Below, piece after piece: positions 23,211 to 41,631 of a stretch of 64,000 nt of DNA. Position 1 is the first letter of the stretch. Every line of letters starts with the position of its first letter. A program made the position numbers and the translations under genes. Source of the stretch: Gemmatimonadales bacterium (lineage in GTDB: Bacteria; Gemmatimonadota; Gemmatimonadetes; Gemmatimonadales; GWC2-71-9); NCBI GenBank assembly GCA_036003865.1, contig DASYRZ010000158.1, positions 29,175 to 93,174 on the forward strand, written 5' to 3'. The notes beneath the pieces were generated by a model, which worked only from the letters and a program-made list of their open reading frames with translations, made no database searches and was not told the DNA's origin.

Positions 23211-24217
23211 ACATCACGTTTTGCGTTGTTCGCACCACGGAACGTCTCGATCGTTTTCTCGCCGACCAGCTCGCTCTCTCCCGCACCCAGGCAGGACGTC
23301 TCATTGCCGAAAGCCGAGTGACCGCGCGCGGCAAGCCGTTGCGTGCGTCCGCGTTGCTGGAGCGGGGGACGGAGGTCACGGTCGCGCTGCCCGAAGACGA
23401 ACCGCCGCGTACTTATGCCCCGGCGCACGCGGAGCTGCATTTCGTCTACGAGGACGAGCATCTCGCGGTGCTCGACAAGCCGGCGGGACTGGTCGTGCAT
23501 CCCGGACCCGGCCACTGGAACGACACCCTCGTCAACGTCCTGGTCGGCCGCGGCACCGAGCTGTCTGGCGGCTCGACTGAAGGACGCCCGGGCATCGTCC
23601 ATCGCCTCGACCGTGACACGTCGGGGTTGCTCATGGTCGCGAAGAGCGATCTGGCGCATCGGCGCCTGGCCGGGGCCATCGAGCGTCGCACGGTGAAGCG
23701 CGTCTACGCCGCGATTGTGTGGGGACACCTGCGCAAGAGTCCGGTCGACATCGAGGCGCCGATCGCGCGGCATCCGAAGGAGCGCAAGCGCATGACGGTG
23801 GCCGAGGGCGGCCGCCACGCCGTCACGCACGCGAGCGTGGTCGCGCGGTTCGCGCACACCGACTTGCTGCGCGTGCGCCTGGGCACTGGCCGGACCCATC
23901 AGATTCGCGTCCACCTCGCGCACATCGGCTGTCCGATCGTCGGCGATCGCGAGTATACGTTTGGCGGGAGTCGTCGCGTCACGCCGTCGGCACGTCAAGA
24001 AGCGGAGCGACTCGAAACGCTGGCGCCGCGCCAGTTGTTGCACGCCGCCGCGCTGTCGTTCACACATCCCGTGACCGGTGTCACGCTGTCGCTCACGTCG
24101 GAATGGCCGAACGACTTGCGTCCCGCGCTGGCGGAAGCGGCAGGGGGGGATGCGGCGAATTTGCTTGCTCAGCCTAACCCCCTGCAGTATCTTGGCTTCT
24201 TCGCATCCGATGACTGA
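23207..24217 (+). CDS. rluD: 23S rRNA pseudouridine synthase, RluD family
   Basis: S4 domain at the N-terminus; catalytic HRLDRDTSGLLM. Confidence 0.88.
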   Translation: MNITFCVVRTTERLDRFLADQLALSRTQAGRLIAESRVTARGKPLRASALLERGTEVTVALPEDEPPRTYAPAHAELHFVYEDEHLAVLDKPAGLVVHPGPGHWNDTLVNVLVGRGTELSGGSTEGRPGIVHRLDRDTSGLLMVAKSDLAHRRLAGAIERRTVKRVYAAIVWGHLRKSPVDIEAPIARHPKERKRMTVAEGGRHAVTHASVVARFAHTDLLRVRLGTGRTHQIRVHLAHIGCPIVGDREYTFGGSRRVTPSARQEAERLETLAPRQLLHAAALSFTHPVTGVTLSLTSEWPNDLRPALAEAAGGDAANLLAQPNPLQYLGFFASDD

Positions 24218-24731
24218 CGGAAGCCTCGTCTCCGCTCGCCTCCTCGTGTTCCGCGTGGGAACACTGGCGTGCGCGGCCGAGGTGGATCAAGTGCGGGAGA
24301 TTCTCCCGCGCCTCCCAACGACGCGTATCCCGGGCGCGCCCCCGGTCGTGGCGGGGCTCGTGAATGTCCGCGGCACGCTGGTGACGGTCGTGGAAGGATG
24401 GCGTGCGCTGGGCCAGGCACAGCCCGGTCTGTCCGCCCCTCCCTCCGACGCCTCCCAGTCACAAGCGCCTGACGCCGCGGGTTCGACGCTCATCCTCGAA
24501 GTCGGCCAGGGTGGCGAAGTGGGAGCGGGGAATGGGTCGGGACGGAAGCTGATTGGCTTTACGGTGGACGAGGTCATGGACATGCTGGCGGTGGCCGACA
24601 CGACGCTGGAGGACCGGCGCAGTCTCCCCGGCGTCGACCCCACCCTGGTCCGCGCCGTCGGCCGCCGGAATGGAGAACTGTTCATCGTACTGGACGTCGC
24701 GGCGCTGTTGGGCCCGATTCTGACTTCTTAA
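24210..24731 (+). CDS. cheW: CheW-like coupling protein (with a low-complexity insert)
   Basis: Start at ATG 24210, overlapping the rluD end by 8 nt. CheW fold signature VFRVG..ACAAEVDQVREILP...VNVRGTLVTVV. Confidence 0.8.
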   Translation: MTDGSLVSARLLVFRVGTLACAAEVDQVREILPRLPTTRIPGAPPVVAGLVNVRGTLVTVVEGWRALGQAQPGLSAPPSDASQSQAPDAAGSTLILEVGQGGEVGAGNGSGRKLIGFTVDEVMDMLAVADTTLEDRRSLPGVDPTLVRAVGRRNGELFIVLDVAALLGPILTS

Positions 24732-24741
24732 GGAGCGCGCA

Positions 24742-25104
24742 GTGAGCCACACGGTTCTCGTCTGTGACGACGCCATCTTCATGCGCACGATGATCACGGA
24801 CATCCTGGCGCAGGCCGGATTCGAGGTCGTCGGCGAGGCGGAAACCGGCACCCAGGCGGTCGAGAAATACCGGCAGCTCAAGCCGGATCTGGTCACGATG
24901 GATATCGTGATGCCCGACATGGGCGGCATCGACGCCGTCCGGGAGATCGTGAAGCACGATCCCGACGCCAAGATCCTGATGTGCAGTGCGATGGGGCAGC
25001 AGGCGTTGGTGGTCGAAGCGATCCAGGCCGGCGCCAAGGACTTCGTCGTCAAACCGTTCCAGCCCTCCCGCGTCCTCGAAGCCGTGCAGCGCGTTCTGGG
25101 CTAG
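24742..25104 (+). CDS. cheY: chemotaxis response regulator CheY
   Basis: 120 aa single REC domain: DD pair, phospho-acceptor in LVTMDIVMPDMGG, conserved K in VVKPF. Confidence 0.92.
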   Translation: MSHTVLVCDDAIFMRTMITDILAQAGFEVVGEAETGTQAVEKYRQLKPDLVTMDIVMPDMGGIDAVREIVKHDPDAKILMCSAMGQQALVVEAIQAGAKDFVVKPFQPSRVLEAVQRVLG

Positions 25105-25106
25105 CC

Positions 25107-27053: not shown

Positions 27054-27057
27054 GTTT

Positions 27058-27132
27058 TCACACGCTAAAGCGTGCGCTCGGCCAGCGCTGCCCTTAAGGG
27101 CAATGTCTGCCGAGCACACCCTTCAGGGTGTG
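27058..27132 (+). repeat. structured intergenic element, copy A (three hairpins)
   Basis: CACGC-TAAA-GCGTG; GCTCGGC..TGCCCTTAAGGGCA..GCCGAGC; ACACCC-TTCA-GGGTGT. A paralogous copy lies at 39790-39866. Confidence 0.85.
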
Positions 27133-27147
27133 AACTAAGGGAGCGAC

Positions 27148-27765
27148 ATGGAAGACGTTCGCGATCTAAAAGCGCTGCAGCTCGACGCCCTCAAAGAGGT
27201 GGCGAACATTGGGGCCGGCCACGCGGCCACGGCGCTCTCGCAGCTCACGCACCGCCGCATCATGATCTCCGTGCCCGAGATCAACATCGCGCGACTGGAA
27301 GACGTGCCCGGGCTGATCGGCGATCCGCAGGAGGTCGTCGCCGCGGTGCTCATGCACATGCTCGGCGACCTGACCGGCCGGACGCTGTTGATCTTCCCGG
27401 AGCCCGTGGGCCGGCAGCTGTGCGACATGCTGCTCAAGCGGCCGCTCGGCACGACCAAAGCGTTCGAGACGATCGAGCAGTCGTGCCTCAAGGAAGCCGG
27501 CAACATTCTGTCGGGCGCCTACATGAACGCGCTGTCGGAGTTCATGGGGATGCTGCTGTTGCCGTCCGTGCCCAGCCTGGTGGTGGATCTCTCGGCCGCA
27601 GTCCTCACGACGACCTACCTGAACTTCGGGCACGATCGCGACTTCGTGTTTTGCGTCGAGACGGAGTTCAACATCGACGCTCAAGACGGGTTGCGCGGCC
27701 ACTTCCTGCTCCTGCCCGACCTGGCGTCGCTCAAGGCCATCTTCGACGCCATTCGGCTGACTTGA
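27148..27765 (+). CDS. cheC: CheC-family CheY-P phosphatase
   Basis: Two E-x2-N active-site repeats (LKEVANIGAGHAA and LKEAGNILSGAY). Confidence 0.85.
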   Translation: MEDVRDLKALQLDALKEVANIGAGHAATALSQLTHRRIMISVPEINIARLEDVPGLIGDPQEVVAAVLMHMLGDLTGRTLLIFPEPVGRQLCDMLLKRPLGTTKAFETIEQSCLKEAGNILSGAYMNALSEFMGMLLLPSVPSLVVDLSAAVLTTTYLNFGHDRDFVFCVETEFNIDAQDGLRGHFLLLPDLASLKAIFDAIRLT

Positions 27766-30461
27766 CGGTCTCAGAGCGTGACGTCGCCGTCCTGAGGTCC
27801 TTTGCCCGCCGGATCGACCCATCCGATGCGGGCGCGCACAACAATCTCGGTGTTCTCTACTATCAAAAGGGTCTCGTCCCCGAGGCCATCGAGCAGTTCA
27901 CCCGCGCGCTCGAGCTCGACCCGCGCATGCAGGTCGCGCAGCGCAATCTCGAGATCGCCTACCACAACACGGGCTATTACGACCGCCGCGTGGCCGAGCT
28001 GCAGGAGCGGCTGCGGCAGGCGCCCGATGAGCGGGACGCGCGTTGGGAGCTGGGCCGCACCTACGCGATCCTCGGCGCCTTCGACGAGGCGGTCGCCGAA
28101 TTCGAGGAGCTGCTCGGCCACAAGCCGGACGACGTCGCGGCGATCATCCAGCTGGGGCTCGCCGAGAAGGCGCGCGGCCGCCTCGAAGTCGCCACCGAAT
28201 GGTTCCTGCGTGCCGCCGAAGCCGAGCCCGACTCCTCGGTCGTCCACTTCTATCTGGGTGAGGTTTACTACAATCGCGGGCTGAACGAGCCGGCGCTGGG
28301 CGCCCTGGAGCGCTCGGTCGCGCTCAATCCGGACAACGCCAACGCGCACTACCTGATGGCCTTCGTGCTGGGCGACATGGGTCGCCATCAGGACGCGCGC
28401 GCGGCCTCCAAGCGCGCGATTCAGCTCAACCCGCCGCTCGCGCGCGCGCAGACGAATCTGTCGCTGGAACGCTACCGCGCCGAGCGGCAGTCGGCCGAGC
28501 ACCGGCTGCGCGCGCAGCCCGCGCCCGAGGTCGCCGAAGGCAGCGAGCTGGCGCACCACAACCTCGGCCTCGCGTTCCGGCAAAAGGGGTACTACGCGGA
28601 GGCGCTGCGCGAATATCGCCTCGCGCTCGAGCGCGGCGAGGACCGCCGGCTCGTGCGCCAGGCGATGGCGGAGGTCTATCTGCTCAAGCGCGACTTCACC
28701 GACGCGCTCGAGCTGTACGAGTCCCTGATCCACGAGATCCCCGATTCGCCCAAACTCTGGAACGAGCGGGGTGTCGTGCTCCATCAGGCGGGCCGGACGG
28801 CGGATGCCCTGGCCTCGTATCGCCAGGCCACCGACGTGGATCCGCGCTACGCGCTCGCCTGGAACAACGTCGGCGTGGTGCTCGCGCACCAAAGCGACGC
28901 GGAAGACGCGATCGAGGGGTTCCGCAAAGCGCTGCAGCTGTCGCCGGAATTCGTCGGCGCTCGCCTGAACCTGGCGCTGCTGTTGACGCATCTGCGGCGC
29001 TTCCAGCTCGCGCTCGAAGCCTACCGCCAGGTGCTCGCCGACCAGCCGGCCTCCGCGGCCGCGTGGAACGGCGTCGGCCTGGTGCTGGTCGAGCTGAAGC
29101 GCTTTCCCGACGCCCGCAACGCCTTCGTGCGCGCGGTCGAGGCCGATCCACAGAACGCCGGCGCGCACTACAACCTGAGCTTCACGCTCTCGAACCTCGG
29201 CGACTACGACGGCGCCCTGCGGGCGACCAAACGCGCGCTGGAGCTCGATCCCTACTACGTCTCCCAGAAGTTCGCGCTGGCGATCGACCTGCAGTACGAG
29301 ACGGTGGCCATCGGCGTCGTGCCCGAGATTTCCGCCGACGTCAGCGCCGAGAACCTCGGCGGCGAGTTTGCGTTCGACCAGCGCCTGCTCGACAACATCT
29401 TCCAGGAGCTCGAGCCGGCGGCCACCGCGCCGCAGCCCGCGCCCGCCGGGCTCGCCAGGAAGGCGGACGATCCGCTCGGGCTCGCGCGCGACTACGTGAG
29501 CAAGGGCATGATGGACCTCGCCGTCGCGGAGGCGATGCGCGCCGTGCAGCGCGGGGCGGACCGCGGCCAGGCGGCGACGCTGGTGGGTGAGATCTACGCG
29601 CGGCGCGGCCTGCATGGCGAGGCGCTCGAGCGCTATCGCGAGGCGCGCACCCTCGACGGTACGAATGCCGCGGCCGCGCTGGGCGAGGTCAAGAGCCTGC
29701 TGGCGCTGCACCGCGCGGCGGAGGCACTGCCGCTCACCGAAGAGCTGGTTGGCAAGGCGCCCGAAGATGTCGAAGTGCTGGTCGCGGCGGCGAAGGCGCG
29801 CGCGGCGACGGGCGACGCCGCCGGCGCGCTCACCGCCTTGCGGCGGGCGCAGACGCGGGCCCCCGACCGCGCCGATTTGCACAAGCTCCAGGGCGATATC
29901 GCCCTCAAGGTCGGCGACCGGCAGGGCGCGCGGACGGCGTACCGCGCGGCGCTCGACTTGGATGAGGGGTTCGTGCAGGTCTGGCTCGACCTCGGGCGGC
30001 TGCACGAGCAGGACGAGGAATGGATGGACGCGCAGCGAGCCTATGAAGCGGCGCTCGACGCGCTGCCGACGTTCCATGAAGCGGCGCTCGCGCTCGCGGA
30101 TCTGCTGCGGCGCAGCGGCAGCCTGCGCCGCGCGGTGGTGCGGCTCGCCGAAATGCTGGAGCAGGATCCGTACGACATGGACGCGCTGCTGCTGCTCGGC
30201 CGCGCCCTGCTCGACGACAAGCGCAATACCGAAGCGCTGGAGGCGTTCCGGCGCGCGCTGAAATTCGATCCCGAGCACACCGCCGCGCTGTTCTACCTGG
30301 GCGCGACGCTCGCGCGGCTGCAGCGCTACGCCGAGGCCGTGGCTGCCTGGGACCGCGTGACGCGGATCGATCCCGGCGGACCGTTCGCGCAACGCGCGCG
30401 CATGCACGCGCGCACCGCGGTCGACTTGCAGCACATTTTCTCCACCCCGGACGCGGCCTGA
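27762..30461 (+). CDS. large TPR-repeat protein (about 899 aa)
   Basis: TTG start overlapping the cheC stop (TTGA). Continuous TPR consensus (..AHNNLGVLYYQKG...A..F..AL.L.P). Confidence 0.8.
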   Translation: MTVSERDVAVLRSFARRIDPSDAGAHNNLGVLYYQKGLVPEAIEQFTRALELDPRMQVAQRNLEIAYHNTGYYDRRVAELQERLRQAPDERDARWELGRTYAILGAFDEAVAEFEELLGHKPDDVAAIIQLGLAEKARGRLEVATEWFLRAAEAEPDSSVVHFYLGEVYYNRGLNEPALGALERSVALNPDNANAHYLMAFVLGDMGRHQDARAASKRAIQLNPPLARAQTNLSLERYRAERQSAEHRLRAQPAPEVAEGSELAHHNLGLAFRQKGYYAEALREYRLALERGEDRRLVRQAMAEVYLLKRDFTDALELYESLIHEIPDSPKLWNERGVVLHQAGRTADALASYRQATDVDPRYALAWNNVGVVLAHQSDAEDAIEGFRKALQLSPEFVGARLNLALLLTHLRRFQLALEAYRQVLADQPASAAAWNGVGLVLVELKRFPDARNAFVRAVEADPQNAGAHYNLSFTLSNLGDYDGALRATKRALELDPYYVSQKFALAIDLQYETVAIGVVPEISADVSAENLGGEFAFDQRLLDNIFQELEPAATAPQPAPAGLARKADDPLGLARDYVSKGMMDLAVAEAMRAVQRGADRGQAATLVGEIYARRGLHGEALERYREARTLDGTNAAAALGEVKSLLALHRAAEALPLTEELVGKAPEDVEVLVAAAKARAATGDAAGALTALRRAQTRAPDRADLHKLQGDIALKVGDRQGARTAYRAALDLDEGFVQVWLDLGRLHEQDEEWMDAQRAYEAALDALPTFHEAALALADLLRRSGSLRRAVVRLAEMLEQDPYDMDALLLLGRALLDDKRNTEALEAFRRALKFDPEHTAALFYLGATLARLQRYAEAVAAWDRVTRIDPGGPFAQRARMHARTAVDLQHIFSTPDAA

Positions 30462-30464
30462 CGC

Positions 30465-31601
30465 ATGGCGATCGAAGGACCGCTTCGCGAGCTCGGCATC
30501 CACGACGTCTTCCAGCTGCTCGACCTGAGCCGGAAGACGGGCGCGCTGCGCGTCACCTCGGACCTGCGGCACAACGAAGGGAAGATCTACTTCGACAACG
30601 GCGTCGTGGTGTCGGCGGAAATCCGCAGCAATCCGCATCCGCTCGGCGCCCTGCTGCTCCGCACCGGCAAGATCGCCGAGGCCGACCTCGAGCGCGCGCG
30701 GGACATGCAGCAGCGCCAGGGCGACAAGCGCCGCCTCGGGGAGATCCTCGTGGCGCTCGGCGTCATCACGCAGCGCGAGGTCGAGCGCCAAATTCACTTC
30801 CAGATCGAAGAGGTCGTCTTCGAGGTCATGAGCTGGAACGAGGGCTACTTCTCGTTTGTGGAAGAAGCCGAGAGCAAGGTCCCCACCGAGGTGACGGTGC
30901 GCATTCCGGTGGAGGCACTGCTGATGGAAGGCGCGCGGCGCATCGACGAGTGGTCGCGGATCGAGAACCGCATTCCGCACGTCGGCGTCGTGCCGTCGCT
31001 CGCGCCCCCTCCCGAAGGCGGCGGCGGTGAGCTGGACCTGTTGCCGCCGGAGTGGGAAGTGCTCGCGCTCATCGATGGCGAGCGCTCGGTCCGCGGGCTC
31101 GCGACGGAGCTGGGGCGCTCCGATTTCGAAGTCGCCAAGACGCTGTTCGGCCTCGAGAGCGCCGGCGTGATCGTGCTGGTCGATCCGGGAACGGCGCGGC
31201 GCGGGAGGCCGAGTGCCGCCTCCGACCTGGCGGAGCTCGTCGCGAAGGCCGAGCGCGCGCTCGTCGCCAAGGATCTCGATGCCGCGCGGGCGGCGGCGGA
31301 GCAGGCCAGCAGCATGCAGCCGCACGACGGGACGATTCATATCCTGCTCGGCCGCATTCAGCTGGCGCAGGGTCACGCCTCCGCGGCCGCCGAGGAGCTG
31401 CGGCGCGCACTCCGCCTCGATCCGCTCCTCGCCGCGGCGCATCGCCAGCTCGGATTTGCACTGGTCGCGATGGGGCGGTTTGGTGAGGCCGTGCAGAGCT
31501 GGGATCAGTGGGAGCGCCTGGCCCGGACCCCAGAGGAAGAAGCGCAGAAGGCCGACGTCCAGCGCGCCCGCGAAGCCGCGCGAGTGTTCACGCATGGCTG
31601 A
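30465..31601 (+). CDS. PATAN/DUF4388 domain protein with MshEN-like helical insert and C-terminal TPRs
   Basis: N-terminus GPLRELGIHDVFQLLDLSRKTGALRV; tandem RLGxxLVxxGxI...Q motifs; TPRs at the C-terminus. Confidence 0.75.
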   Translation: MAIEGPLRELGIHDVFQLLDLSRKTGALRVTSDLRHNEGKIYFDNGVVVSAEIRSNPHPLGALLLRTGKIAEADLERARDMQQRQGDKRRLGEILVALGVITQREVERQIHFQIEEVVFEVMSWNEGYFSFVEEAESKVPTEVTVRIPVEALLMEGARRIDEWSRIENRIPHVGVVPSLAPPPEGGGGELDLLPPEWEVLALIDGERSVRGLATELGRSDFEVAKTLFGLESAGVIVLVDPGTARRGRPSAASDLAELVAKAERALVAKDLDAARAAAEQASSMQPHDGTIHILLGRIQLAQGHASAAAEELRRALRLDPLLAAAHRQLGFALVAMGRFGEAVQSWDQWERLARTPEEEAQKADVQRAREAARVFTHG

Positions 31602-32439: not shown

Positions 32440-32783
32440 GCAAGGCGCTCGATATGATCACACGGGTGCGCGGCGTCCGCGGGGCGATGCTCGTTTCCGC
32501 GGAAGACGGGCTCGTGGTCGCCGAGCAGCTGATGGAGGGGATCAAGGGCGGCGCCGTCGCGGCGCTTGCCGCGAGCCTTGCCGGTCGCCTGCGGCGCGCG
32601 ATGGAGGCCGCGGGCACCGGAGCCAGCGTCTTTTGGCATCTTCAGGCGGAGCAGGGCGCGCTGCTCGTCGTCCCGGGAGGTGACCCCGTCGGCAGTATCC
32701 TGGTCGTCGCGGTGGCAGAGCCGGACGTGAACATCGGCCTCGTGCGGCTGGAGCTGCTGCGCGCCGCGGGGGCCGTCGTATGA
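32436..32783 (+). CDS. Roadblock/LC7 domain protein (MglC-like size)
   Basis: 115 aa; VRGVRGAMLVSAEDGLVVAE...GGAVAALAASL pattern; ATGA coupling. Confidence 0.75.
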   Translation: MSKALDMITRVRGVRGAMLVSAEDGLVVAEQLMEGIKGGAVAALAASLAGRLRRAMEAAGTGASVFWHLQAEQGALLVVPGGDPVGSILVVAVAEPDVNIGLVRLELLRAAGAVV

Positions 32784-33256: not shown

Positions 33257-33259
33257 GCC

Positions 33260-33862
33260 GTGTCCTTGGTCAACTTCACGACCCGCGAGATCACGTGCAA
33301 AATCGTCTACTACGGACCGGGACGGTCCGGAAAGACGACCAATCTCCATTACATCTATGGGCGGGTGCCGGAGACGCGCCGCGGGCGCATGGTCTCGTTG
33401 GCCACGCAGACCGACCGCACCTTGTTCTTCGACTTCCTGCCGATCGACCTTGGACAGATTTCCGGGTTCTCGACGCGCTTCCAGCTCTACACCGTCCCCG
33501 GGCAGGTCTACTACAACGCCACGCGGCGCCTCGTGCTCCAAGGCGCTGATGGCGTCGTCTTCGTCGGCGACAGCCAGGCGCGGCAGCTCGATGAGAACAT
33601 CGAAAGCCTACAGAACCTCCAGAGCAATCTGCTCGAGCATGGCGTCGATGTGCGCACCATGCCCCTGGTGATGCAATACAACAAGCAGGACTTGCCGCGC
33701 GAGCTGATTCTCACGACGGCCGACCTCGATGACGCACTCAACTTTCGCAGCGTTCCGAGCTTTGGGGCGGACGCGCTCCATGGCAGAGGGGTGTTCGAGA
33801 CGCTGAAGGCGGTCTCCGAGCTTGTTCTGAAGAAGCTCGCGGCGGGAAGCCCCGCAGCATGA
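33260..33862 (+). CDS. mglA: MglA-family Ras-like GTPase
   Basis: P-loop [19 protein letters not shown], MglA-specific TVPGQ (in place of DxxGQ), NKQDL. High similarity to M. xanthus MglA along the whole length. Confidence 0.92.
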
Positions 33863-35808
33863 CCAGCTCCCTCAATCCCCGTTTCACGTTCGAGACCTTC
33901 GTGGTGGGCGCCGCGAACCGTCTGGCCGTCACGGCCGGCCGCACCGTCGCGGAGAATCCGGGTTCGGCCTACAACCCGCTCTTCATTTATAGTGGCTCCG
34001 GACTGGGAAAGACCCACCTGCTGATGGCCATCGGCCACGCCGCCAAGGCCATCGCGGCGCAGCTCAACATCGAGTACCTCACGCTGGACGAGTACGTCGA
34101 GTCGTTCCATGCCGCGATTGCGGCGGGGCAGGGCGACGCGTTCCGCCGCCGCTTCCAGAACGTGGCTGTCCTGCTGGTGGACGACGTCCAGTTCCTCACG
34201 AATCGCAAAGAGATGCAGGCCGAGCTGCTGCGCCTCACCGAAGCGCTGCAGCAATCGGGGCATCAGATCGTGCTCGCGAGCGATCGACCGCCGGCGGAAA
34301 TCGCGGATTTGGACGAACGGCTCATCTCGCGGTTCTCGGGTGGGCTCGTGGTGGACATGGGCATCCCCGACTACGAAACCCGGGTCGCGATTCTGCGGCG
34401 CAAGGCCGAGGAGCGCGGCTCGTCGTTCCAGCCGGGCGTGCTCGAGACGGTCGCGAAGGTGGAGTACCCGAACGTGCGCGAGCTGATGGGTGCGCTCAAT
34501 CGCTTGATCGCGTTTCAGGCGGTCAACGACATGCCGATCAACGCCGAAGCGGCCAGCAAAGTCCTCGGGATCCCGACCAGGCCATCGACCGCCGCTGCAT
34601 CGACCGCCGCCTCATCGACCGCCGCCTCATCAGATGAGTTCTCGCAGTTCTTGACCGACGTCACGACGACCGTGGGCAAAGCCGTCGAGGCGTGGCGCGC
34701 GCGCGTGACCGAGGCGATCATGCGCTGGGAAGGTGAAGGCTACCGCACCGGGAGGCTCGAGAAGCTGCTCGATCAGGAGAGTCCCGCCGCGGTGGACGAG
34801 GTGATCGCCGCCTACGTGCAGGATGTCGAGCGGCTCAAGGCGCTGGAGGCGGAAGTCGCGGTGCTGGATCCGCAGGCCGCCGGCGGGAAGGTGTTCCGCG
34901 ATCCCGACCAGATGGAGGCGGCCGAAGCCGCCGCGGCGAAGGTGCGCGACGGCGCCGCGCCGCCGCCCGCGCCATCGGGGGCGTTTCCGCTCGAGAGCTA
35001 CCTCGCCGGTCCGTCCAATGAGGTGGCGCTGAACGCCGCGCGCGATGTGCTGGCCAAGCCCGGCAAGAAATACAATCCGCTCGTGATCGTGGGACGCAGC
35101 GGGCTCGGCAAGACGCATCTGCTGAATGCCATCGGCCTCGAGCTCGCAAAAAAGAAGAACGCGGTCGTCGCCTGTCTCTCGACCCAACAGTTCGTGGACG
35201 AGCTGATCGCGGCCATCGACGGCAATCGGGTCGATTGGTGGCGCGCCCGCTACCGCCGCGCGACGGCGCTGCTCCTGGACGACATCCACCTGCTGGCCGG
35301 CAAGGAACGCACGCAGGAAGAGCTGTTCAATCTGTTCAATCAGCTCGTCGACGCCGACCGCCAGCTTATCTTCACGGCGCCCGCGCATCCCAACACGCTG
35401 GAAGGACTCGAGGAACGGATCATCTCGCGGCTCGAGGGCGGGTTGGTTGCGCAGATCGCCGAGCCGGACAAGGAGCTCCGCCGCAGCGTGCTCGAGCGGC
35501 TGCTCACGCAGCAGGGGATACCGGTCGAGCCGGCGCTGCTCGATTATCTGGCGGACCGGCCCATCGACTCGATCCGCAATCTGAACGGCATCGTGCAGCG
35601 CGTGGTGGAGGCGGCGGCGGCGCAGGATGCGTCCGTGAGCGCCGGCCTGGCGCGCGAAGTCTTGGAAGGCGCGCCCCCGCCCCGGCGCACGGTGGGGCTG
35701 CGCACCAGCGGGATCGTGGTGTCGAGTGCCGGGGGCGTGCGGAGCCGGGAGAAGATGGTCTGGGATTGGCCCGCCGCCGCCGATCGTGTCATCGAGGATT
35801 TGCGCTAA
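33859..35808 (+). CDS. protein with two tandem DnaA-type AAA+ modules and no DnaA domain IV
   Basis: Module 1: [50 protein letters not shown]. Module 2: [54 protein letters not shown] overlap with mglA. Confidence 0.88.
34584..34628 (+). repeat. 3x 15-mer CATCGACCGCCGC(C/T)(T/G) tandem repeat (encodes [16 protein letters not shown] linker)
   Basis: Read directly from the sequence; lies in the linker after the first DnaA-like module. Confidence 0.85.
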
Positions 35809-37424
35809 TGGCGATCAAGGGCTCGCTCAAGGAAGCATCGCTCCCCGACGTGCTGCAGCTGCTGGCACTGGGGCAGAAGACCGGCTGCCTGTCGATCGCC
35901 GACCGCTCCAACTTCGGCTACATCTACTTCGACAGGGGCCGCATCTGCTACGCGTCCATCGTCAACCGCCGCGACCGCCTCGGCGACATTCTCGTCAAGC
36001 ACGAGAAGATCACCCAGGATCAGCTCGACGCCGCGATACACCGCCAATCGAAAGAGCGCACCAAGAAGCTGGGTGAGATTCTCGTCATCCAGAACGTGCT
36101 GACGCAGCAAGAGCTCGAGCGGTACATGCGCATGCAGATCGAGGAGTCAGTCTACTACCTGTTCACGTGGACGCAGGGGACGTTCAATTTCGAGGCCGAC
36201 GTCCGGCCGGAGCAGCAGGACTTCCTCGTCTCGATCAACCCGGAGTCGCTGCTGCTCGAAGGCGCGCGCCGGGTGGACGAGTGGGGACTGATCGAGAAGA
36301 AGATCCCGTCGTTCGATCTGATCTTTCTCGTGGACCGCGACCGCCTCGAGATCAGCGACGCCAAGCTGACGGAGATTCAGGACCGGCTCCTGCCCCTGCT
36401 CGACGGATCGCGCGACGTGAACGGGGTCATCGAGGACTCGGGGTTAGGCGAGTTCGAGGTCGGGAAAGCGCTCTACGGCCTGGTGACCGCCGGGTTCCTG
36501 CATCGGGCGGGCCGTACCGCCAGCGCCGAAGACCTGAAGATGACCGACGCCCGGGTGGAGGAGCATCGCAATCTGGGCATCGCCTTCTACAAGACGGGCA
36601 TGCTGGACGAAGCGGCACGCGAGTTCCGCCGCGTCGCCGAGCTGCGCGCGACCGACGGCAATGCCCATTTCTTCATCGGCCTGGTCGCGCTCAAACAGGC
36701 GCGCTGGCGCGAGGCCATGGAGGCGCTGCGGCTCGCCGCCGAAAAGGGCGGCTCGCGGCCGGCCGTGCTCCACAATCTCGGCCTTGCCTACGAGCAGCTC
36801 GGCCGGCTCGAGGACGCGGATGCCGCGTATTCCGAGGCGGCGACGCGCGCGCGCACCGACCCGCGCGTGTACGTGGGGTGGGGCATCGTCGCGCTGAAGC
36901 AGGGCGATCACGCGAGCGCCGCCGGCCGGCTCGACCGCGCCAAGGAGCTGTTCGCCGCCAAGGTGCCGCCCATCTGGTACTGGGCGCGCGCGCTCGCCGC
37001 GGCGGCCGCCGGCGATTTCGACACCGCCGAACAGGTGGCCACGCAGGCGGTCGAGGCGCATCCGCACAGCGGCGTGCTGCGCAACAATCTGGCCGTACTG
37101 CACGAGCTGGCCGGGGCGCTGCCGCAAGCCGAGGAGCTGGCCCGCGCGGCGCTGCACGACGAGCCGTCGCTGCCGCAGCTCTCCAAGAACCTCGGCGATC
37201 TCGCCTACCGCGGTTCGCGCTACGACGAGGCGTGGGCGCTCTATCAGCGGGCGATCGAGCTGGCCCCCGAGCTGGGCGACGACGTCTACTTCAAGCTCGG
37301 CAACATCGCGTACAAGCGAAACGACCGCCAACAGGCGAGCGACTTGTGGCGTCGCGCGCTCGAGCTGAATCCCAAACACGAGCTCGTCAAGGCGAATCTG
37401 GACACGTTGAGCAGTTTGTCGTGA
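35808..37424 (+). CDS. PATAN/DUF4388 domain protein with MshEN-like insert and long TPR region
   Basis: Start at ATG 35808 (TAATG). GSLKEASLPDVLQLLALGQKTGCLSI; RLGDILVKHEKITQDQLDAAIHRQ and KLGEILVIQNVLTQQELERYMRMQ; at least 8 TPRs. Confidence 0.8.
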   Translation: MAIKGSLKEASLPDVLQLLALGQKTGCLSIADRSNFGYIYFDRGRICYASIVNRRDRLGDILVKHEKITQDQLDAAIHRQSKERTKKLGEILVIQNVLTQQELERYMRMQIEESVYYLFTWTQGTFNFEADVRPEQQDFLVSINPESLLLEGARRVDEWGLIEKKIPSFDLIFLVDRDRLEISDAKLTEIQDRLLPLLDGSRDVNGVIEDSGLGEFEVGKALYGLVTAGFLHRAGRTASAEDLKMTDARVEEHRNLGIAFYKTGMLDEAAREFRRVAELRATDGNAHFFIGLVALKQARWREAMEALRLAAEKGGSRPAVLHNLGLAYEQLGRLEDADAAYSEAATRARTDPRVYVGWGIVALKQGDHASAAGRLDRAKELFAAKVPPIWYWARALAAAAAGDFDTAEQVATQAVEAHPHSGVLRNNLAVLHELAGALPQAEELARAALHDEPSLPQLSKNLGDLAYRGSRYDEAWALYQRAIELAPELGDDVYFKLGNIAYKRNDRQQASDLWRRALELNPKHELVKANLDTLSSLS

Positions 37425-38218
37425 CCAGGGGGGGGACTCCTCAGGAGCGGGCGTTCGAAGCGCTGACAGAAAAGATCTCTCGCGAACGGGGAGTGAGCTG
37501 CGGGTCGTACAAGGGGCGATGCCTGAAACGCCGCATCGCGGTGCGCATGCGCGCCCGCGGCGTCCATACCTACGAAGACTACGCCAAAATTCTCGATCTC
37601 GACGCGCACGAGTACCAGGAGCTGCTCGACGCGCTCACGATCAACGTCACCAAGTTCTTCCGTAACGCCGAAACGTGGAATGCGCTGCGGCCCTATCTGG
37701 AAGCGCTCGCCCGCTCGCGCGCCAGGCTCCGCGTCTGGTCGGCGGGCTGCGCCTCGGGTGAGGAGCCGTACACGATCGCCGTGCTGCTCGCCGAAGCGCG
37801 CGCGCCAGGCACGATCGATGCGACCGACATCGACCGTCTCAGCCTGGAGCGCACGCGGCAGGCGACCTACCCGGACGCGGCATTCACCGAGATGCCGGAC
37901 CATCTCAAGCGGCGCTACTTCCAGGACGGGCAGCCGCTGCCCCAGGTGCGCGAGCTCGTGCACGTGCTCCAGCACGATTTGACGCGCGAGCGGCCGCCGC
38001 ATCCGCCGTACGATCTGATCGTCTGCCGGAACGTCGTGATTTACTTCGAGCGCGCGGCCCAGGAGCGGCTGTTTCAGGTGTTCGTCGACGCGCTCGTGCC
38101 GGGCGGCGTGCTGCTCCTCGGCAAGGTCGAGACGCTGTTCGGCCCGGCGCGCGAGCGCCTCACCCTCGCCGACCCCCGCGAGCGCATCTATACCAAGCCG
38201 AACGGGGAGCGGTCGTGA
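37421..38218 (+). CDS. cheR: chemotaxis protein methyltransferase CheR
   Basis: GTG start in a GTGA overlap. TKFFRN motif and SAM site VWSAGCASGEEPYTIA. Confidence 0.9.
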   Translation: MTRGGTPQERAFEALTEKISRERGVSCGSYKGRCLKRRIAVRMRARGVHTYEDYAKILDLDAHEYQELLDALTINVTKFFRNAETWNALRPYLEALARSRARLRVWSAGCASGEEPYTIAVLLAEARAPGTIDATDIDRLSLERTRQATYPDAAFTEMPDHLKRRYFQDGQPLPQVRELVHVLQHDLTRERPPHPPYDLIVCRNVVIYFERAAQERLFQVFVDALVPGGVLLLGKVETLFGPARERLTLADPRERIYTKPNGERS

Positions 38219-38697
38219 AGGAAGTCATCGTCAAGGTCGCTGACTGGGCGGCCGACCGTGGCGACGGCGTGCTGGTCACGCTGGGACTCGGCTCCTGCGT
38301 GGCGATCATGCTGCATGACCCCGAGACGCGCGCCGGCGCCATGGCCCACGTCCTCCTGCCCTCCACCAGCCTGGCACGCGACATCACCAACAAAGCCAAG
38401 TTCCCCGAAACCGCCGTCCCGCTGTTGATCGAGCGGCTGAAGGCGCTCGGCGCCGACCCGCGGCGCCTCGTCGCCAAACTGGCCGGCGGCGCCAGCATGT
38501 TCAGCCAGCTCGTCACGCCGGGCACCATTCAGATGGGCGAGCGCAACATCATGGCCTCGCGTAACGCGCTGCGGGCCGCCGCGATTCCGATCATCCGCGA
38601 GTCGGTCGGCGGCGAGCGCGGGCGCAGCGTGCGCTTTCACCTGAAAGACGGCCGCGTGGAGATCCGGTCGGTCGGAGCCGATGCCGCGGTCATCTGA
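38215..38697 (+). CDS. cheD: chemoreceptor glutamine deamidase CheD
   Basis: [12 protein letters not shown]...AMAHVLLP motif set; 160 aa. Confidence 0.9.
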
Positions 38698-39787
38698 CAC
38701 CGTCCGTCCGACGGTCGTGGTTGCGGACGACAGCGCACTCATGCGGCGCGTGCTGTCCGACGTCCTGGGTGGGGGGGATGCCGATACGGGCGAATTCCGC
38801 GTCGTCGCCACCGCGCGCGACGGGCTGGACGCGATTCGGAAGGTGCATCAGCACAAGCCCGACGTCGTGACGCTCGATCTCGAGATGCCGCAGCTCGATG
38901 GCCTCGGCGCCATCGGCTACATCATGTCGGAGTCGCCGCGGCCGATCGTCGTGGTCAGCGCGCACGCGGGACCGGGCACGCAGGGCGCGATTCGCGCGCT
39001 CGAGCTCGGCGCGGTCGAGATCGTCGCCAAACCGCCCCCCGAGGTCTTCGGTCATCCGCGCGCCGCGCTCGAAGCGCTCGCGCCGCAGCTCATCGCGGCC
39101 GTGCGCCGCGCGCTCGCCGCCGATGTCTCGCACGTCAAAGTGCTGGCGCGGCCACCGGCACCGGTGGTGCATCCGCCGGAGCTCGCGTTGCGCGGCCGCG
39201 CGGTGCTCGCCGTGGGCGTCGCCGCGTCGACCGGTGGCCCGCGCGCACTCGCCGACGTCATCCCGCGCCTCCCGACCGGCCGCGGCGCCGCGATCCTCAT
39301 CGTGCAGCACATGCCGCCGAAGTTCACGCGGAGTCTCGCGGAGCGGCTCGATTCGATGAGCCGCTTGCGTGTCGTCGAGGCGGCTGAGGGTGCACCAATC
39401 GTCGCGGATACGGCATTCGTGGCCCCCGGCGATTATCATATGCGAGTGCGTCTTGCTCCCGATGGACCGGTCATCGCGCTCGATCAATCCGCCCCCCTGT
39501 GGGGCGTTCGCCCCGCGGCCGATCACCTGTTCCGTTCCATCGCCGAGGTGTACGGCGGCCGTGGTGTGGGGATCGTCCTCACGGGGATGGGCCGCGACGG
39601 GGCCGGCGGGCTGCGCGCGATCCATGATGCCGGCGGGACCGGCCTCGCCCAGGATCGCGAGACCGCGGTGATTCCGGGGATGCCGGTTGCGGCGGTGCAG
39701 GCGGGCGGCGTCGATGCCGTGCTGCCGCTGGGTCAGATCGCCGACCGCGTCGCGGCCGAGCTGATGCGAAAGGGATCGCGGTCGTGA
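38681..39787 (+). CDS. cheB: protein-glutamate methylesterase CheB (REC + esterase)
   Basis: REC domain ([21 protein letters not shown]); catalytic region [10 protein letters not shown] and [10 protein letters not shown]. Confidence 0.93.
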
Positions 39788-39789
39788 TT

Positions 39790-39866
39790 CGACACGCTAA
39801 AGCGTGCGCTCGGCGGGGCATTGTCCTTAAGGACAATGGTGTGCCGAGCCCACCCTTTAGGGTGGG
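39790..39866 (+). repeat. structured intergenic element, copy B (three hairpins)
   Basis: CACGC-TAAA-GCGTG; GCTCGGC..ATTGTCCTTAAGGACAAT..GCCGAGC; CCACCC-TTTA-GGGTGG. Paralog of 27058-27132. Confidence 0.85.
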
Positions 39867-39875
39867 AATGCCGCG

Positions 39876-40298
39876 ATGAAAGGGTATTTGTTGGTCCGTT
39901 CCGAGGGAAAATCGTACGGCCTGCCGGTCGGCCGGGTGCTCGAGGTCGGTGATGCCTCCGAGGTGCTGAGCATTCCGCGCACGCTCCCGGCGATGCGCGG
40001 CCTGACGCCGCTGCGCGGCCGGCTCGTGCCGTTGATTCACCTCGGCGCATTCCTCACGGGCAGCGAAGCGCCGGCCGCGACTCCCGCGAATCAGGTCCGC
40101 ACCGTCGTGCTGGTGGAGCTGGGTGCCGGCGGCCGGCAGGTGGCGTTCGAGGTGGATGACGCCGCCGCGGTGGTCCGGGAGCAACCGCTGCCGGTTCCTC
40201 GCGGCCAGACGTTGCCCTGGGCGGCCGGCGTGGCGGAGCAGGACGGGGGGCTCGTGCCGATCCTCGATCTGGACGCGTTGGGGGACCGGATCGTATGA
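39876..40298 (+). CDS. cheW: CheW coupling protein
   Basis: 140 aa CheW fold (YGLPVGRVLEV...MRGLTPLRGRLVPLIHL). Confidence 0.85.
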   Translation: MKGYLLVRSEGKSYGLPVGRVLEVGDASEVLSIPRTLPAMRGLTPLRGRLVPLIHLGAFLTGSEAPAATPANQVRTVVLVELGAGGRQVAFEVDDAAAVVREQPLPVPRGQTLPWAAGVAEQDGGLVPILDLDALGDRIV

Positions 40299-40762
40299 CG
40301 ATGAGCGGCGGCGGCGACGACGTCCAGCTGGTTACGTTCAAGGTGGCCGGCCAGGACTTCGCGTTCAACATCTTTCAAGTCGAGCGCATCCTGCGCTACG
40401 AAGCGCCGGCGCCGTTGCCGAAGGCGCCGGAGTTTCTCGAAGGGGTGTTGCAGTACCAGGGCACCGCGGTTCCGCTCGTCGATCTCCGCAAACGGCTGGG
40501 CACGGCCGCGCCGCTGCGCGAGGACACGCGCACCGTCATCCTCGAATTCGACGGCGGGAAAATCGGCGTCATCGTCGATGCCGTGACCGAAGTGATGCAG
40601 GTGCCCGCGCAGGCCGTGACCCCACCGCCGGGCATCGTCCGCGGGCTCGCGGCGGAATACATCGCCGGTCTCGTCGTGCAGAATGGCCGCACCATCGTCG
40701 TCTTGAACACGAACAAGCTCCTCAATTCGAAAGAGAAACTGGCTTTGCAGGGAGCGACATGA
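40295..40762 (+). CDS. cheW: CheW coupling protein
   Basis: 155 aa; LVTFKVAGQDFAFNIFQVERIL...GVLQYQGTAVPLVDLR; ATGA coupling. Confidence 0.88.
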   Translation: MTMSGGGDDVQLVTFKVAGQDFAFNIFQVERILRYEAPAPLPKAPEFLEGVLQYQGTAVPLVDLRKRLGTAAPLREDTRTVILEFDGGKIGVIVDAVTEVMQVPAQAVTPPPGIVRGLAAEYIAGLVVQNGRTIVVLNTNKLLNSKEKLALQGAT

Positions 40763-41631
40763 TGGCAGAGACACCAGTCGCGGCGCTGCGTCGCGAATAC
40801 GATGCCATCGCTCGGCAGCTCGAGGGGGGAGGCCCGGCGGGCAGCGCCGAGCGTGAAGCGGCGAAGCGCGAGATCATCGCGTTCTTCAAGAAGGTCGACG
40901 GCATGTTGGGAGAGATGACGCAGCTCAAGGACGACATCCGCCAGCTCGTCGATCGCTACAAGCAGCTCGCGGCCGATACAAAGCAGGCGGCGGCTCCGGA
41001 GTTCACCGGCCAGCGCCCCGTCGTGCACGCCGATCACATCGGCGCGACGACGTTCATCGAAAAGGGGTGGAGCCTGATCTCGCTGGGCGATCACGCCGGC
41101 GCGATTCAGGCGCTGACCAAGGCGCTGCAGCTCTCGCCCGGCGAGACACAGGCCGAGTCGCTGCTCGGCTGGGCGCAGATGCTGCACGAAGACTACGACG
41201 ACGCGCTCGGCACTTTCCAGAAAGTGCTCATGAAGGAGCCCGCCAATTCCCTGGCGCGCATCAATGTCGGCTACATCTGTTTGAAAAAACGGATCTTCGG
41301 CGAAGCCATCGAACACCTGTCGAAGGCCATCCGGTTGGACAACGACAAGAAGGCGACGCTCTACGCGCACTTCTACCTCGGCCTCGTGTACTTGCAGCGG
41401 GAGATGTTCGAGGATGCCGAGACGTTTTTCGAGAAGACGATCAAGCTCGGCCCCAACCTGATCGAGGCGTATTACGAGCTGGGACGCGCGCATTGGTTCG
41501 CCGGCGATCAGGCGAAAGCCAAGTCCACCTGGGAAGACGGATTCAAGGCGAACAAGTTCAATCCCTGGGGCAAGCGGTGTCAGGAAATGCTGGACCTGGT
41601 CGCCAGGGGCGAGGAGCCGCCGCGAGAATAA
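40759..41631 (+). CDS. coiled-coil + TPR protein
   Basis: Start at ATG 40759 overlapping the cheW stop. TPR consensus from about aa 100 (GDHAGAIQALTKALQLSP...). Confidence 0.8.
   Translation: MMAETPVAALRREYDAIARQLEGGGPAGSAEREAAKREIIAFFKKVDGMLGEMTQLKDDIRQLVDRYKQLAADTKQAAAPEFTGQRPVVHADHIGATTFIEKGWSLISLGDHAGAIQALTKALQLSPGETQAESLLGWAQMLHEDYDDALGTFQKVLMKEPANSLARINVGYICLKKRIFGEAIEHLSKAIRLDNDKKATLYAHFYLGLVYLQREMFEDAETFFEKTIKLGPNLIEAYYELGRAHWFAGDQAKAKSTWEDGFKANKFNPWGKRCQEMLDLVARGEEPPRE

Follow-up and report, generated by a model that had tools for sequence, protein, structure and literature searches.

A conserved gene array joining F1-like chemotaxis genes, an MglA/MglB module, and a tandem DnaA-like ATPase in Gemmatimonadales

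In a 64-kb stretch of the genome of a Gemmatimonadales bacterium (assembly GCA_036003865.1, contig DASYRZ010000158.1; the whole analyzed stretch is called the window below), 18 co-directional genes on the + strand (window positions 24210-41631) form one closely packed array, which combines a chemotaxis (Che) gene set, the GTPase gene mglA with an mglB-like neighbor, genes for Roadblock, PATAN-domain, and tetratricopeptide repeat (TPR) proteins, and a gene for an ATPase built from two DnaA-like modules (2xDnaA). We propose that this array is one conserved, operon-like unit that couples an F1-like chemosensory phosphorelay to a pole-specifying module, and we give this reading a probability of roughly 0.5. 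The arrangement exceeds chance, as it is colinear in 29 of 29 loci despite identities of 35-60% for most of the encoded proteins. Gemmatimonadota are among the most abundant phyla in soil, and to our knowledge their cell biology is almost unexplored. The array is conserved in soil Gemmatimonadales, and its combination of components has never been studied experimentally.

Organization of the gene array

From its 5' end the array reads cheW1-cheY-cheA-cheC-TPR899-PATAN1-TPR/Roadblock-Roadblock-mglB-mglA and continues after mglA with 2xDnaA-PATAN2-cheR-cheD-cheB-cheW2-cheW3-TPR290. Components were assigned by profile searches against Pfam and NCBIfam and by structure searches for relatives in the Protein Data Bank (PDB). 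Every component class named in the initial annotation was confirmed in this way; its count of 19 proteins was not, as the tandem DnaA is encoded by a single open reading frame of 649 amino acids (aa), which leaves 18 genes. Eleven of the 17 junctions within the array are start/stop overlaps of 1-17 nucleotides (nt): TTGA at 27762, 8 nt at 31594, ATGA at 32436, 32780, 33859, 40295, and 40759, TAATG at 35808, GTGA at 37421 and 38215, and 17 nt at 38681. Four further junctions are gaps of 2-10 nt, and at the remaining pair the genes lie 94 and 88 nt apart. The coordinates and junctions given in the initial annotation all proved correct, and the overlaps together with the profile calls bear out its claim that these component classes are linked in one translationally coupled array. 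Overlaps also span the module boundaries (cheC/TPR899, mglA/2xDnaA, and PATAN2/cheR), and the start of cheW1 overlaps the stop of the upstream rluD by 8 nt. Since the Che genes interleave with the Mgl, 2xDnaA, and PATAN genes, which they enclose on both flanks, chance juxtaposition is hard to defend.

Conservation across Gemmatimonadales

Relatives were sought with MglA as seed in one genome per species of the GTDB, and the best 80 of at least 534 relatives were compared with the window proteins by tblastn. These 80 loci lie in Gemmatimonadales/Gemmatimonadaceae metagenome-assembled genomes (MAGs), one of them a Gemmatimonas sp., and in two contigs binned elsewhere; by type, all 80 are Gemmatimonadales contigs. 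A full-length set comprised the 29 loci of at least 20 kb, all of which are colinear with the window array; the same order was found wherever a contig is long enough. The fear that the co-localization might be unique to this genome is thereby dispelled, and the combination of Che, mglBA, DnaA-like, and PATAN genes, for which a neighborhood search had been suggested, recurs across the order. Each of 16 genes was found in no fewer than 28 of these 29 loci, the two exceptions among the 18 being cheW3 (27 loci) and cheW2 (16 loci), and the array measures 16.1-18.5 kb. Identities to the window proteins are about 87-98% for CheY (28 of the 29 full-length loci; 69% in locus L042), 75-96% for MglA, and 35-60% for most others, so that gene order has been kept through substantial divergence. 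The site of the array between housekeeping genes is likewise constant across the order.

The two contigs binned elsewhere (L015 and L032; MglA 80-83% identical) belong to MAGs labeled Solirubrobacterales and Acidimicrobiia, a placement that probably reflects binning errors and not transfer. In one sublineage (L039, L047, L060, L064, L067, L071, and L072) 2xDnaA is much more divergent (35-38% identity, versus about 50% in neighboring lineages); no matches to cheW2 or cheW3 were found there wherever the contig extends so far, and the cheR and cheB matches are weak in L067, L071, and L072. This sublineage may be undergoing coordinated accelerated evolution or partial decay.

Modular variants of the array

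Four layouts were distinguished. Layout A, the full array, is that of the Gemmatimonadales and was also found in a Gemmatimonadota MAG without cheD (L164) and in one metagenome contig (L159). Layout B consists of the core only, in the order yggS-divIVA-PNP (purine nucleoside phosphorylase)-ileS-dksA-lspA-rluD-2xDnaA-PATAN2/TPR-(TPR)-Peptidase_MA_2, and Che and Mgl genes are absent from the locus. Of 29 metagenome contigs from a high-GC lineage, 28 show this layout, as does MAG GCA_036556205.1; the succession rluD-2xDnaA-PATAN2 was recorded in these 28 metagenome loci, in L167, and in L119. Because the flanking genes are shared, layout B occupies the same chromosomal site as the window array. 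Layout B may have lost the Che and Mgl flanks, or layout A may have gained them. Layout C, Che plus core, reads cheW-cheY-cheA-AAA_22-cheW-cheC-TPR(~820 aa)-PATAN-2xDnaA and was found in two distant low-GC MAGs (L081 and L165), which have no Roadblock or MglA genes at these loci and in which CheY is 69% and CheC 54% identical to the window proteins. Between cheA and cheC these two loci (L081, 3743-5493; L165, 4339-6011) carry genes for a 272-aa AAA_22 P-loop protein and a long CheW (284-310 aa), a pair that recalls ATPase/CheW-like positioning pairs and is absent from the window. Layout D is that of one low-GC Gemmatimonadetes MAG (GCA_003697105.1) with two paralogous tandem-DnaA loci. In the first (L082), an orthologue of TPR899 is followed by 2xDnaA about 3 kb downstream of two bactofilin genes; in the second (L168), 2xDnaA follows a PATAN gene, whose product has a perfect MshEN half-site (see below), and a gene for a 241-aa protein of no known family. 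The proteins encoded downstream of 2xDnaA in L082 have no Pfam match, no similarity to array proteins, and signal-peptide-like hydrophobic N-termini, and were excluded from the system.

Across these layouts the constant partners of the tandem ATPase are PATAN and/or TPR proteins. PATAN2 adjoins 2xDnaA in the sampled Gemmatimonadota lineages with the post-rluD site, in the full array as in the minimal core, and an orthologue of TPR899 lies directly upstream of 2xDnaA, or one PATAN gene away, in distant lineages too (L082, 30% identity over 785 aa, E 7e-99; L081, E 8e-66; also L164 and L165). In the Che-less L167, a 296-aa TPR gene, similar in size to TPR290, follows PATAN2. 2xDnaA with PATAN-TPR (and TPR290) appears to be an older core of the array, and the block of four genes for TPR-Roadblock, Roadblock, MglB, and MglA acts like a cassette placed between PATAN1 and 2xDnaA. 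The initial annotation had remarked that an ATPase of this type is not normally associated with the other components; the protein is no odd passenger, and together with PATAN-TPR it is the most widely conserved part, found also without Che and MglAB.

The modularity of layouts B to D keeps alive the main alternative explanation, in which independent systems accreted at one permissive locus and are co-transcribed without working together, namely an F1 flagellar Che operon, a PATAN-MglB-MglA module of the kind known from Chloroflexi, Chlorobi, and Aquificae, and an unrelated 2xDnaA/PATAN/TPR core. The core does occur alone, and Che plus core occurs without Mgl; PATAN-MglB-MglA neighborhoods exist in other phyla, where the published table lists no Che genes; CheY and CheA are close to canonical Thermotoga flagellar proteins; and cheW2 and cheW3 are dispensable in some lineages. 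However, mere accretion accounts poorly for start/stop overlaps that cross the module boundaries, for Che genes on both sides of the core, for a gene order that does not vary among the 29 loci despite their deep divergence, and for the second, independent association of Che with TPR-PATAN-2xDnaA in the distant lineage of layout C. We regard this explanation as serious and, on balance, rather unlikely.

The tandem DnaA-like ATPase

The product of the gene that follows mglA (33859-35808, +) is 649 aa long and contains two AAA+ modules of the DnaA domain-III type (Pfam Bac_DnaA, 342.7 bits in two stretches), which occupy approximately residues 5-237 and 378-603 and are joined by a conserved helical linker with family-specific residues. 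The AlphaFold2 model of the protein has a mean predicted local distance difference test score (pLDDT) of 81.8, and disorder is predicted for residues 607-634. Module 1 shares about 45-49% identity with domain III of Bacillus subtilis DnaA, on which its AlphaFold model superposes with a TM-score of 0.95 and a root mean square deviation of 1.4 Å. Both modules retain Walker A (GSGLGKT in module 1 and GRSGLGKT in module 2), Walker B, two box VII arginines, and sensor II, and the ATPase motif residues are mostly invariant, the rest nearly so, among 34 family members. Judged by these motifs, it is possible that both modules are ATPase-competent and form ATP-dependent subunit contacts of the DnaA type.

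The protein is not a replication initiator, because domain I (DnaA_N, PF11638) and the DNA-binding domain IV (Bac_DnaA_C, PF08299) are lacking, both of which are present in genuine DnaA matches. Hda was ruled out as well: the protein has two modules and 649 aa, a regular-expression search found no clamp-binding motif of the QL[SP]LF type, and the score against the Hda model TIGR03420 (184 bits) is below the cutoff of 194.8. It does pass the equivalog cutoff of TIGR00362 (507 versus 343.9 bits) because it holds two copies of domain III. Members of the family (P0002-P0120, P0271-P0389) are widely auto-named "chromosomal replication initiator protein DnaA," which is a systematic mis-annotation. 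A sub-threshold Rfam match to AsdA, the antisense RNA of dnaA mRNA, on the opposite strand within the 2xDnaA gene (33988-34053, -; 37.4 bits, threshold 52) is explained most simply by homology to dnaA coding sequences.

HMMER searches over 1.84 billion cluster representatives retrieved several dozen complete tandem proteins, about 650 aa in length and with 31-57% identity, and the family comprises more than 40 clusters at 50% identity. All named taxa are Gemmatimonadota save one MAG labeled Ca. Cloacimonetes. A profile built from 22 distant representatives matched consensus-like proteins of Gemmatimonadales only and added no taxonomic breadth; the single-sequence search with P0188 was more informative. 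The L166 protein, which is archaeal, combines a single DnaA-ATPase module with a zinc ribbon and is unrelated.

A motif of the form EK.VW.WP....R.[IV]E[ED].. is conserved at the C-terminus. It was located in 32 sequences, and its distance to the chain end is exactly 15 residues in 26 of these, as in most of the divergent representatives. The acidic EEVD tails of Hsp70 and Hsp90 dock into TPR domains. The combination of a conserved acidic C-terminal peptide, a flexible tether, and adjacent TPR genes suggests, by analogy, that the 2xDnaA tail docks into a TPR protein in the same manner.

The close resemblance of module 1 to B. subtilis DnaA (about 45-49% identity, superposition at 1.4 Å) and the box VII arginines and sensor II of both modules also invite another explanation, a cell-cycle or replication coupler in which 2xDnaA co-assembles with, caps, or sequesters DnaA, or binds single-stranded DNA, and so ties replication initiation or chromosome position to pole identity, cyclic di-GMP (c-di-GMP), and chemosensory state. 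It would suit this idea that the core always lies beside the yggS-divIVA-ileS-lspA-rluD block and upstream of the division and cell wall (dcw) cluster, and that Gemmatimonas divides asymmetrically or by budding. The absence of domain IV, domain I, and an Hda-type clamp motif argues against it, however, as do the invariant partners, TPR and PATAN proteins in place of any replication factors; the company of Che and Mgl genes speaks for motility or polarity instead, and the divIVA synteny may be just inherited gene order. We consider such a coupler unlikely.

MglA, MglB, and Roadblock proteins

The mglA gene (33260-33862, +) encodes a group-1-type Ras-like GTPase of 200 aa that matches the Myxococcus xanthus MglA structures 5YMX and 6IZW over its full length (about 60% identity, E 2e-73). 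The motifs GPGRSGKT at 19, TDR53T, TLFFDF, TVPGQ at 78-82, and NKQD at 141 are present, among them the two (TVPGQ and TLFFDF) pointed out in the initial annotation. The protein thus has the P-loop, the threonine in PM3 (TxxGQ), the intrinsic R53, Q82, and the NKxD motif that define group 1, and judged by these residues MglA is predicted to be catalytically intact.

The preceding gene (32780-33256, +) ends 3 nt before mglA, as befits a cognate neighbor, and encodes a Roadblock protein of 158 aa (Pfam Robl_LC7, 23.5 bits, cutoff 23). All eight of its PDB matches are MglB, the best being those of M. xanthus (E 7e-8) and Thermus thermophilus, and it does not reach the cutoff of the NCBIfam model for Thermus-type MglB (NF052242; 26.5 bits, cutoff 200). 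Its sequence marks it as a divergent MglB-like protein and candidate GTPase-activating protein (GAP) of MglA. The mglA, mglB, and DnaA-like calls have thus all survived profile and structure searches. Two further Roadblock proteins are encoded immediately upstream, a stand-alone Roadblock/LC7 protein of 115 aa (32436-32783, +; Pfam Robl_LC7, 36.7 bits; PDB 7F8M, E 1.9e-5) and a 281-aa fusion of TPR repeats (Pfam TPR) with a Roadblock/LC7 domain (31594-32439, +). In the latter, Robl_LC7 scores 20.4 bits against a cutoff of 23 and the NCBIfam MglB model matches with E 4.9e-5; the Roadblock call is supported by a profile of 17 orthologues, whose top PDB matches are all Roadblock/MglB chains.

Chemotaxis proteins

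The Che core of the array is complete but receptor-less, with CheA, three CheW, CheY, CheC, CheD, CheR, and CheB. The upstream flank encodes CheW1 (24210-24731, +; 173 aa; Pfam CheW, 77 bits), the single-domain response regulator CheY of the F1/Thermotoga type (24742-25104, +; Response_reg, 109 bits), CheA of 648 aa with domains P1 (Hpt) to P5 (25107-27053, +; Pfam Hpt, P2, H-kinase_dim, HATPase_c, and CheW), and CheC of the CheY-P phosphatase family (27148-27765, +; Pfam CheC, 78.6 bits; NCBIfam CheC_Thtogales, 162 bits). The downstream flank encodes the methyltransferase CheR (37421-38218, +; Pfam CheR, 152.7 bits, and CheR_N), CheD (38215-38697, +; 98.6 bits), CheB with a receiver (REC) and a methylesterase domain (38681-39787, +; CheB_methylest, 210 bits, and Response_reg), CheW2, the least conserved member of the array (39876-40298, +; 140 aa; CheW, 66.6 bits), and CheW3 (40295-40762, +; 155 aa; 115.7 bits).

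CheC and CheD are auxiliary proteins of the F1 chemosensory class (PMC10746217). CheY shares about 73% identity with its Thermotoga maritima counterpart (1TMY, E 1.3e-51), with Escherichia coli CheY far more distant, and the closest PDB relatives of CheA are those of T. maritima, its top NCBIfam model being the haloarchaeal CheA_Halo. Because CheC and CheD are present and CheY and CheA are T. maritima-like, the Che set looks like the flagellar class F1, a call based on composition and Thermotoga likeness. No CheA-REC fusion, FrzZ-like protein, or response regulator beyond CheY and CheB was detected in the array by Pfam. Lacking a CheA-REC, FrzZ, and a linked methyl-accepting chemotaxis protein (MCP), it is by composition not a Che system of the Frz, type IV pilus (Tfp), or alternative cellular function (ACF) type, and the Frz analogy drawn in the initial annotation is a loose one.

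PATAN and TPR proteins

Two proteins combine a DUF4388/PATAN domain with C-terminal TPRs, PATAN1 (30465-31601, +; Pfam DUF4388, 114.5 bits) and PATAN2 (35808-37424, +; 538 aa with about eight TPRs; 133.5 bits). Two further proteins match Pfam TPR families, TPR899 (27762-30461, +; 899 aa, TTG start) and TPR290 (40759-41631, +; 290 aa), the latter present in 29 of 29 loci. The PATAN proteins had been likened to PatA-type (PATAN-REC) regulators, a comparison that does not hold because a Pfam Response_reg search found no receiver domain in either; their C-termini consist of TPR repeats.

Both PATAN domains contain an MshEN-like helical insert, which scores 40 bits in PATAN1 and 49.9 bits in PATAN2 against the NCBIfam c-di-GMP motif model NF053729 (cutoff 38). 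The consensus of 67 PATAN1 and 98 PATAN2 sequences (the window protein and 66 and 97 orthologues, respectively) shows two tandem half-sites RLGxxLVxxGxIxxxxLxxxxxxQ, to be compared with the published MshEN motif, a tandem 24-residue RLGxx(L/V/I)(L/V/I)xxG(L/V/I)(L/V/I)xxxxLxxxLxxQ (PMC5013675), to which the second half-site of PATAN1 is a complete match. Going by these motifs, the PATAN proteins may sense c-di-GMP.

These features also suit a Frz-like control of type IV pilus twitching reversals, in which CheY-P would make MglA/MglB change poles, and the pili at the leading pole would be activated by MglA-GTP together with an SgmX-like TPR899 and PilB-binding PATAN proteins. The characterized roles of MglA, SgmX, and PATAN all concern pili or gliding (PMC7519303; PMC3441718; bioRxiv 10.1101/2021.06.11.447907), proximity labeling in M. 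xanthus placed PATAN proteins near SgmX (PMC11580455), and an MshEN-like motif is a typical element in the control of pilus ATPases (PMC5013675). However, the Che set has F1 hallmarks, with no CheA-REC, extra response regulators, or cytoplasmic MCP in the cluster, and neither the window nor the compared loci contain pil genes. The NCBIfam SgmX model matches faintly and only in PATAN2 (14.9 bits against 1800), in a search that did not include TPR899. All in all, pilus reversal control of this kind seems quite improbable.

Proposed function

In the coupled system that we favor, 2xDnaA would self-assemble with ATP, as DnaA domain III does via its arginine finger, and serve as a platform or timer. 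Its acidic C-terminal tail would dock, on the disordered tether, in the TPR domain of a neighboring gene product, and the PATAN domains would link the platform to a polar machine, by analogy with the PATAN regulators acting on PilB1 in Synechocystis, and may additionally sense c-di-GMP. MglA-GTP would mark one pole by binding TPR or PATAN effectors, as in the MglA-SgmX pair, and MglB and the TPR-Roadblock/Roadblock pair would switch MglA off or on. CheY-P from receptor arrays encoded elsewhere would steer a motor and/or reset the polarity module. As an outcome, a single polar flagellum, a chemoreceptor array, or pili would be placed and used at the right pole and inherited at division. Of these outputs we favor, by analogy, the placement or use of a polar flagellum and/or chemoreceptor array, because of the F1 design of the Che set and the single polar flagellum of cultured Gemmatimonas (PMC9862903); ParC and ParP, which place chemotaxis arrays at the Vibrio cell pole (PMC5706961), offer a loose precedent. 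Pilus control, or a link to DnaA and the cell cycle, is possible.

A number of points weigh against such a coupling. Every functional link in it is drawn from gene context. No MCP, flagellar, or pilus genes were found in the window, for which the initial annotation had already noted the absence of flagellar, pilus, and gliding-motor genes, or in any of the fetched loci. A CheY so close to that of Thermotoga (about 73% identity) may act solely on the flagellar switch, and the PATAN proteins, being devoid of REC domains, offer the phosphorelay no obvious entry. Binding of c-di-GMP by PATAN2 is uncertain, because the window protein has E and N at the glycine position of its two half-sites, which is Gly in the orthologue consensus. 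The core is also found without Che and MglAB, and the modules can hence work apart. Finally, the MglA scan, limited to its best 80 of at least 534 relatives, covers Gemmatimonadales only and places MglA-Che linkage in other phyla outside its scope.

A broader reading, which we put forward tentatively, is that 2xDnaA with PATAN-TPR and TPR proteins constitutes an unrecognized, phylum-wide, ATP-driven polar or cell-cycle hub that was later wired to a Che and Mgl switch. If so, the DnaA oligomerization engine would have been exapted away from DNA, or would still be talking to DnaA, and in Gemmatimonadales an F1 Che system and an MglA/MglB/Roadblock switch would have been wired onto this hub. The result would, on this reading, be a natural single-operon case of chemosensory control of cell polarity outside Myxococcota, in a flagellate. 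The route from Che to MglA has been worked out only in Myxococcus, with its parts scattered, and an order-wide operon would provide a compact list of co-retained parts; the coupling is testable in cultured Gemmatimonas. The tandem DnaA family matters, moreover, for genome annotation and for the reuse of AAA+ initiator modules.

Gap elements and genomic surroundings

The two long gaps of the array are filled by copies of one palindromic element of about 80 nt with three hairpins per copy, in the cheA-cheC gap (27054-27147, +; 94 nt; minimum free energy -46 kcal/mol, z -4.5) and in the cheB-cheW2 gap (39788-39875, +; 88 nt; -49.9 kcal/mol, z -6.5). The exact 23-mer ACACGCTAAAGCGTGCGCTCGGC is common to both copies and occurs nowhere else in the window, and the element has no match in Rfam. 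Among the relatives it was found only in two close ones, L002 and L008, at one of the two sites in each; elsewhere the cheA-cheC junction measures 7-49 nt (mostly 8-14 nt) and the cheB-cheW2 junction about 0-42 nt. By these features the element looks like a small mobile repeat of the repetitive extragenic palindromic (REP) or miniature inverted-repeat transposable element (MITE) kind that targets operon junctions. A conserved regulatory RNA was ruled out by the missing Rfam match, the occurrence in just two relatives, and the empty junctions elsewhere. As relatives have short spacers at the same junctions, the gaps are recent secondary insertions into an ancestral array that was essentially gap-free. 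The initial annotation had thus sized the gaps correctly at about 90 nt, but its division of the array into three blocks is an artifact of one REP/MITE-like repeat inserted twice in this genome.

Small palindromic repeats in gaps, and faint Pfam nSTAND and AAA matches in the P-loop region of 2xDnaA module 2, might recall a defense island or mobile-element cargo made up of STAND-like ATPases and TPR proteins. PADLOC, however, finds generic P-loop and TPR matches and no known defense protein model beyond these, the housekeeping-flanked site is fixed across the order, GC is uniform, and the fold is that of DnaA domain III and not STAND, so that a defense island is effectively excluded.

Nearly all genes of the window run in the same direction, with a GC content of about 0.64-0.72 throughout. 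Upstream of the array lie ftsH, a MacAB-type ABC exporter, folP, cdaA, a gene for a TMEM260-like glycosyltransferase, yggS, divIVA, a purine nucleoside phosphorylase gene, ileS, dksA/traR, lspA, and rluD. The cdaA-type diadenylate cyclase gene (DAC domain; 14002-14802, +) stands beside folP and the TMEM260-like gene, which encodes an O-mannosyltransferase. Downstream, a Peptidase_MA_2-like gene (41640-42500, +; Pfam Peptidase_MA_2, 29.6 bits, cutoff 32.4; start uncertain) encodes, by its translation, an HExxH motif (HELAH) and a C-terminal transmembrane helix. It lies 3' of the full or minimal cluster in L164, L119, and L167 too, and as a candidate associated gene may be part of the system. 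It is followed by a tRNA-Val gene (anticodon TAC; 42721-42794, +) and a gene for a 605-aa TPR protein; the dcw genes lie further downstream according to the earlier reading of the sequence.

Comparison with known systems

In the literature searched, we found neither a Che-MglA-DnaA-like cluster nor tandem DnaA domain-III proteins, in agreement with the initial annotation, which knew of no characterized system of this composition; the adjacency of MglA and PATAN had nevertheless already been tabulated for Gemmatimonas aurantiaca. Chemosensory control of an MglA switch and MglA-PATAN neighborhoods are thus a known theme, and what is new is the present composition and the uncharacterized tandem family, which may be new in kind.

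Module 1 of this family is a near-perfect DnaA domain III, and both modules keep the ATPase motifs of DnaA and Hda. In contrast to these proteins, 2xDnaA is a single chain in which a helical linker particular to the family connects two domain-III modules, and it has a conserved C-terminal peptide while lacking domain I, domain IV, and the clamp motif.

The F1 systems of Thermotoga, Bacillus, and archaea share with the array CheA with domains P1-P5, CheW, CheY, CheC, CheD, CheR, and CheB. Here, however, nine non-Che genes sit between cheC and cheR, and no MCP, CheV, CheX, or flagellar gene is linked. In ParC/ParP of Vibrio and Pseudomonas, an NTPase and adaptors tether chemotaxis arrays to the pole, which is a precedent for a positioning role; the ATPase there is of the ParA/MinD type, whereas the array has a tandem DnaA-type AAA+ protein, no ParP-like CheW fusion, and a small GTPase switch. 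The PatA-type PATAN-REC regulators of the cyanobacterial Tax/Pix systems, which bind the pilus ATPase PilB1 in Synechocystis (bioRxiv 10.1101/2021.06.11.447907; PMC9090330), likewise have a PATAN domain with a helical insert and are encoded with Che-like genes, but the proteins described here have TPRs at the C-terminus in place of REC, and their insert scores as an MshEN-type motif.

Some group 1 and group 5 mglA genes have been reported near PATAN genes, whereas those of Myxococcus and Bdellovibrio are not near signaling partners (Wuichet and Sogaard-Andersen, 2015; PMC4316618). Table S2 of that study lists GAU_1409 of G. aurantiaca as "PATAN>MglA>-PATAN>" and GAU_1115 as "MglB>MglA>"; Che genes and a DnaA-like gene are not mentioned in it. 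PATAN genes flank mglA in the window as well, and the one gene left without a name in the GAU_1409 entry, between mglA and the following PATAN gene, is probably 2xDnaA. In contrast to the array, the published tables on such PATAN-MglB-MglA neighborhoods (Makarova et al., 2006; PMC4316618) name MglA, MglB, and PATAN only and include no Che, TPR, or DnaA-like genes, and these publications propose no function beyond a possible interaction.

The closest functional parallel is M. xanthus, where Frz acts on MglA/MglB (PMC3441718; PMC4546325), MglA-GTP acts via the TPR effector SgmX (PMC7519303), and PATAN proteins belong to the SgmX proximity proteome (PMC11580455). As in the Frz-MglA/MglB system (with RomR, MglC, and RomY), the MglA of the array is of the group 1 type with the equivalents of R53, T78, and Q82, and the array supplies a candidate MglB-like GAP, additional Roadblock paralogues, TPR proteins that might serve as effectors, and a Che pathway that might provide the input. 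It differs in having no FrzE-type CheA-REC, FrzZ, FrzX, or FrzCD, and no RomR or RomX was seen in it. Moreover, the Myxococcus genes stand at separate loci, whereas those of Gemmatimonadales form one array, to which two PATAN-TPR proteins and the tandem DnaA-like ATPase are added.

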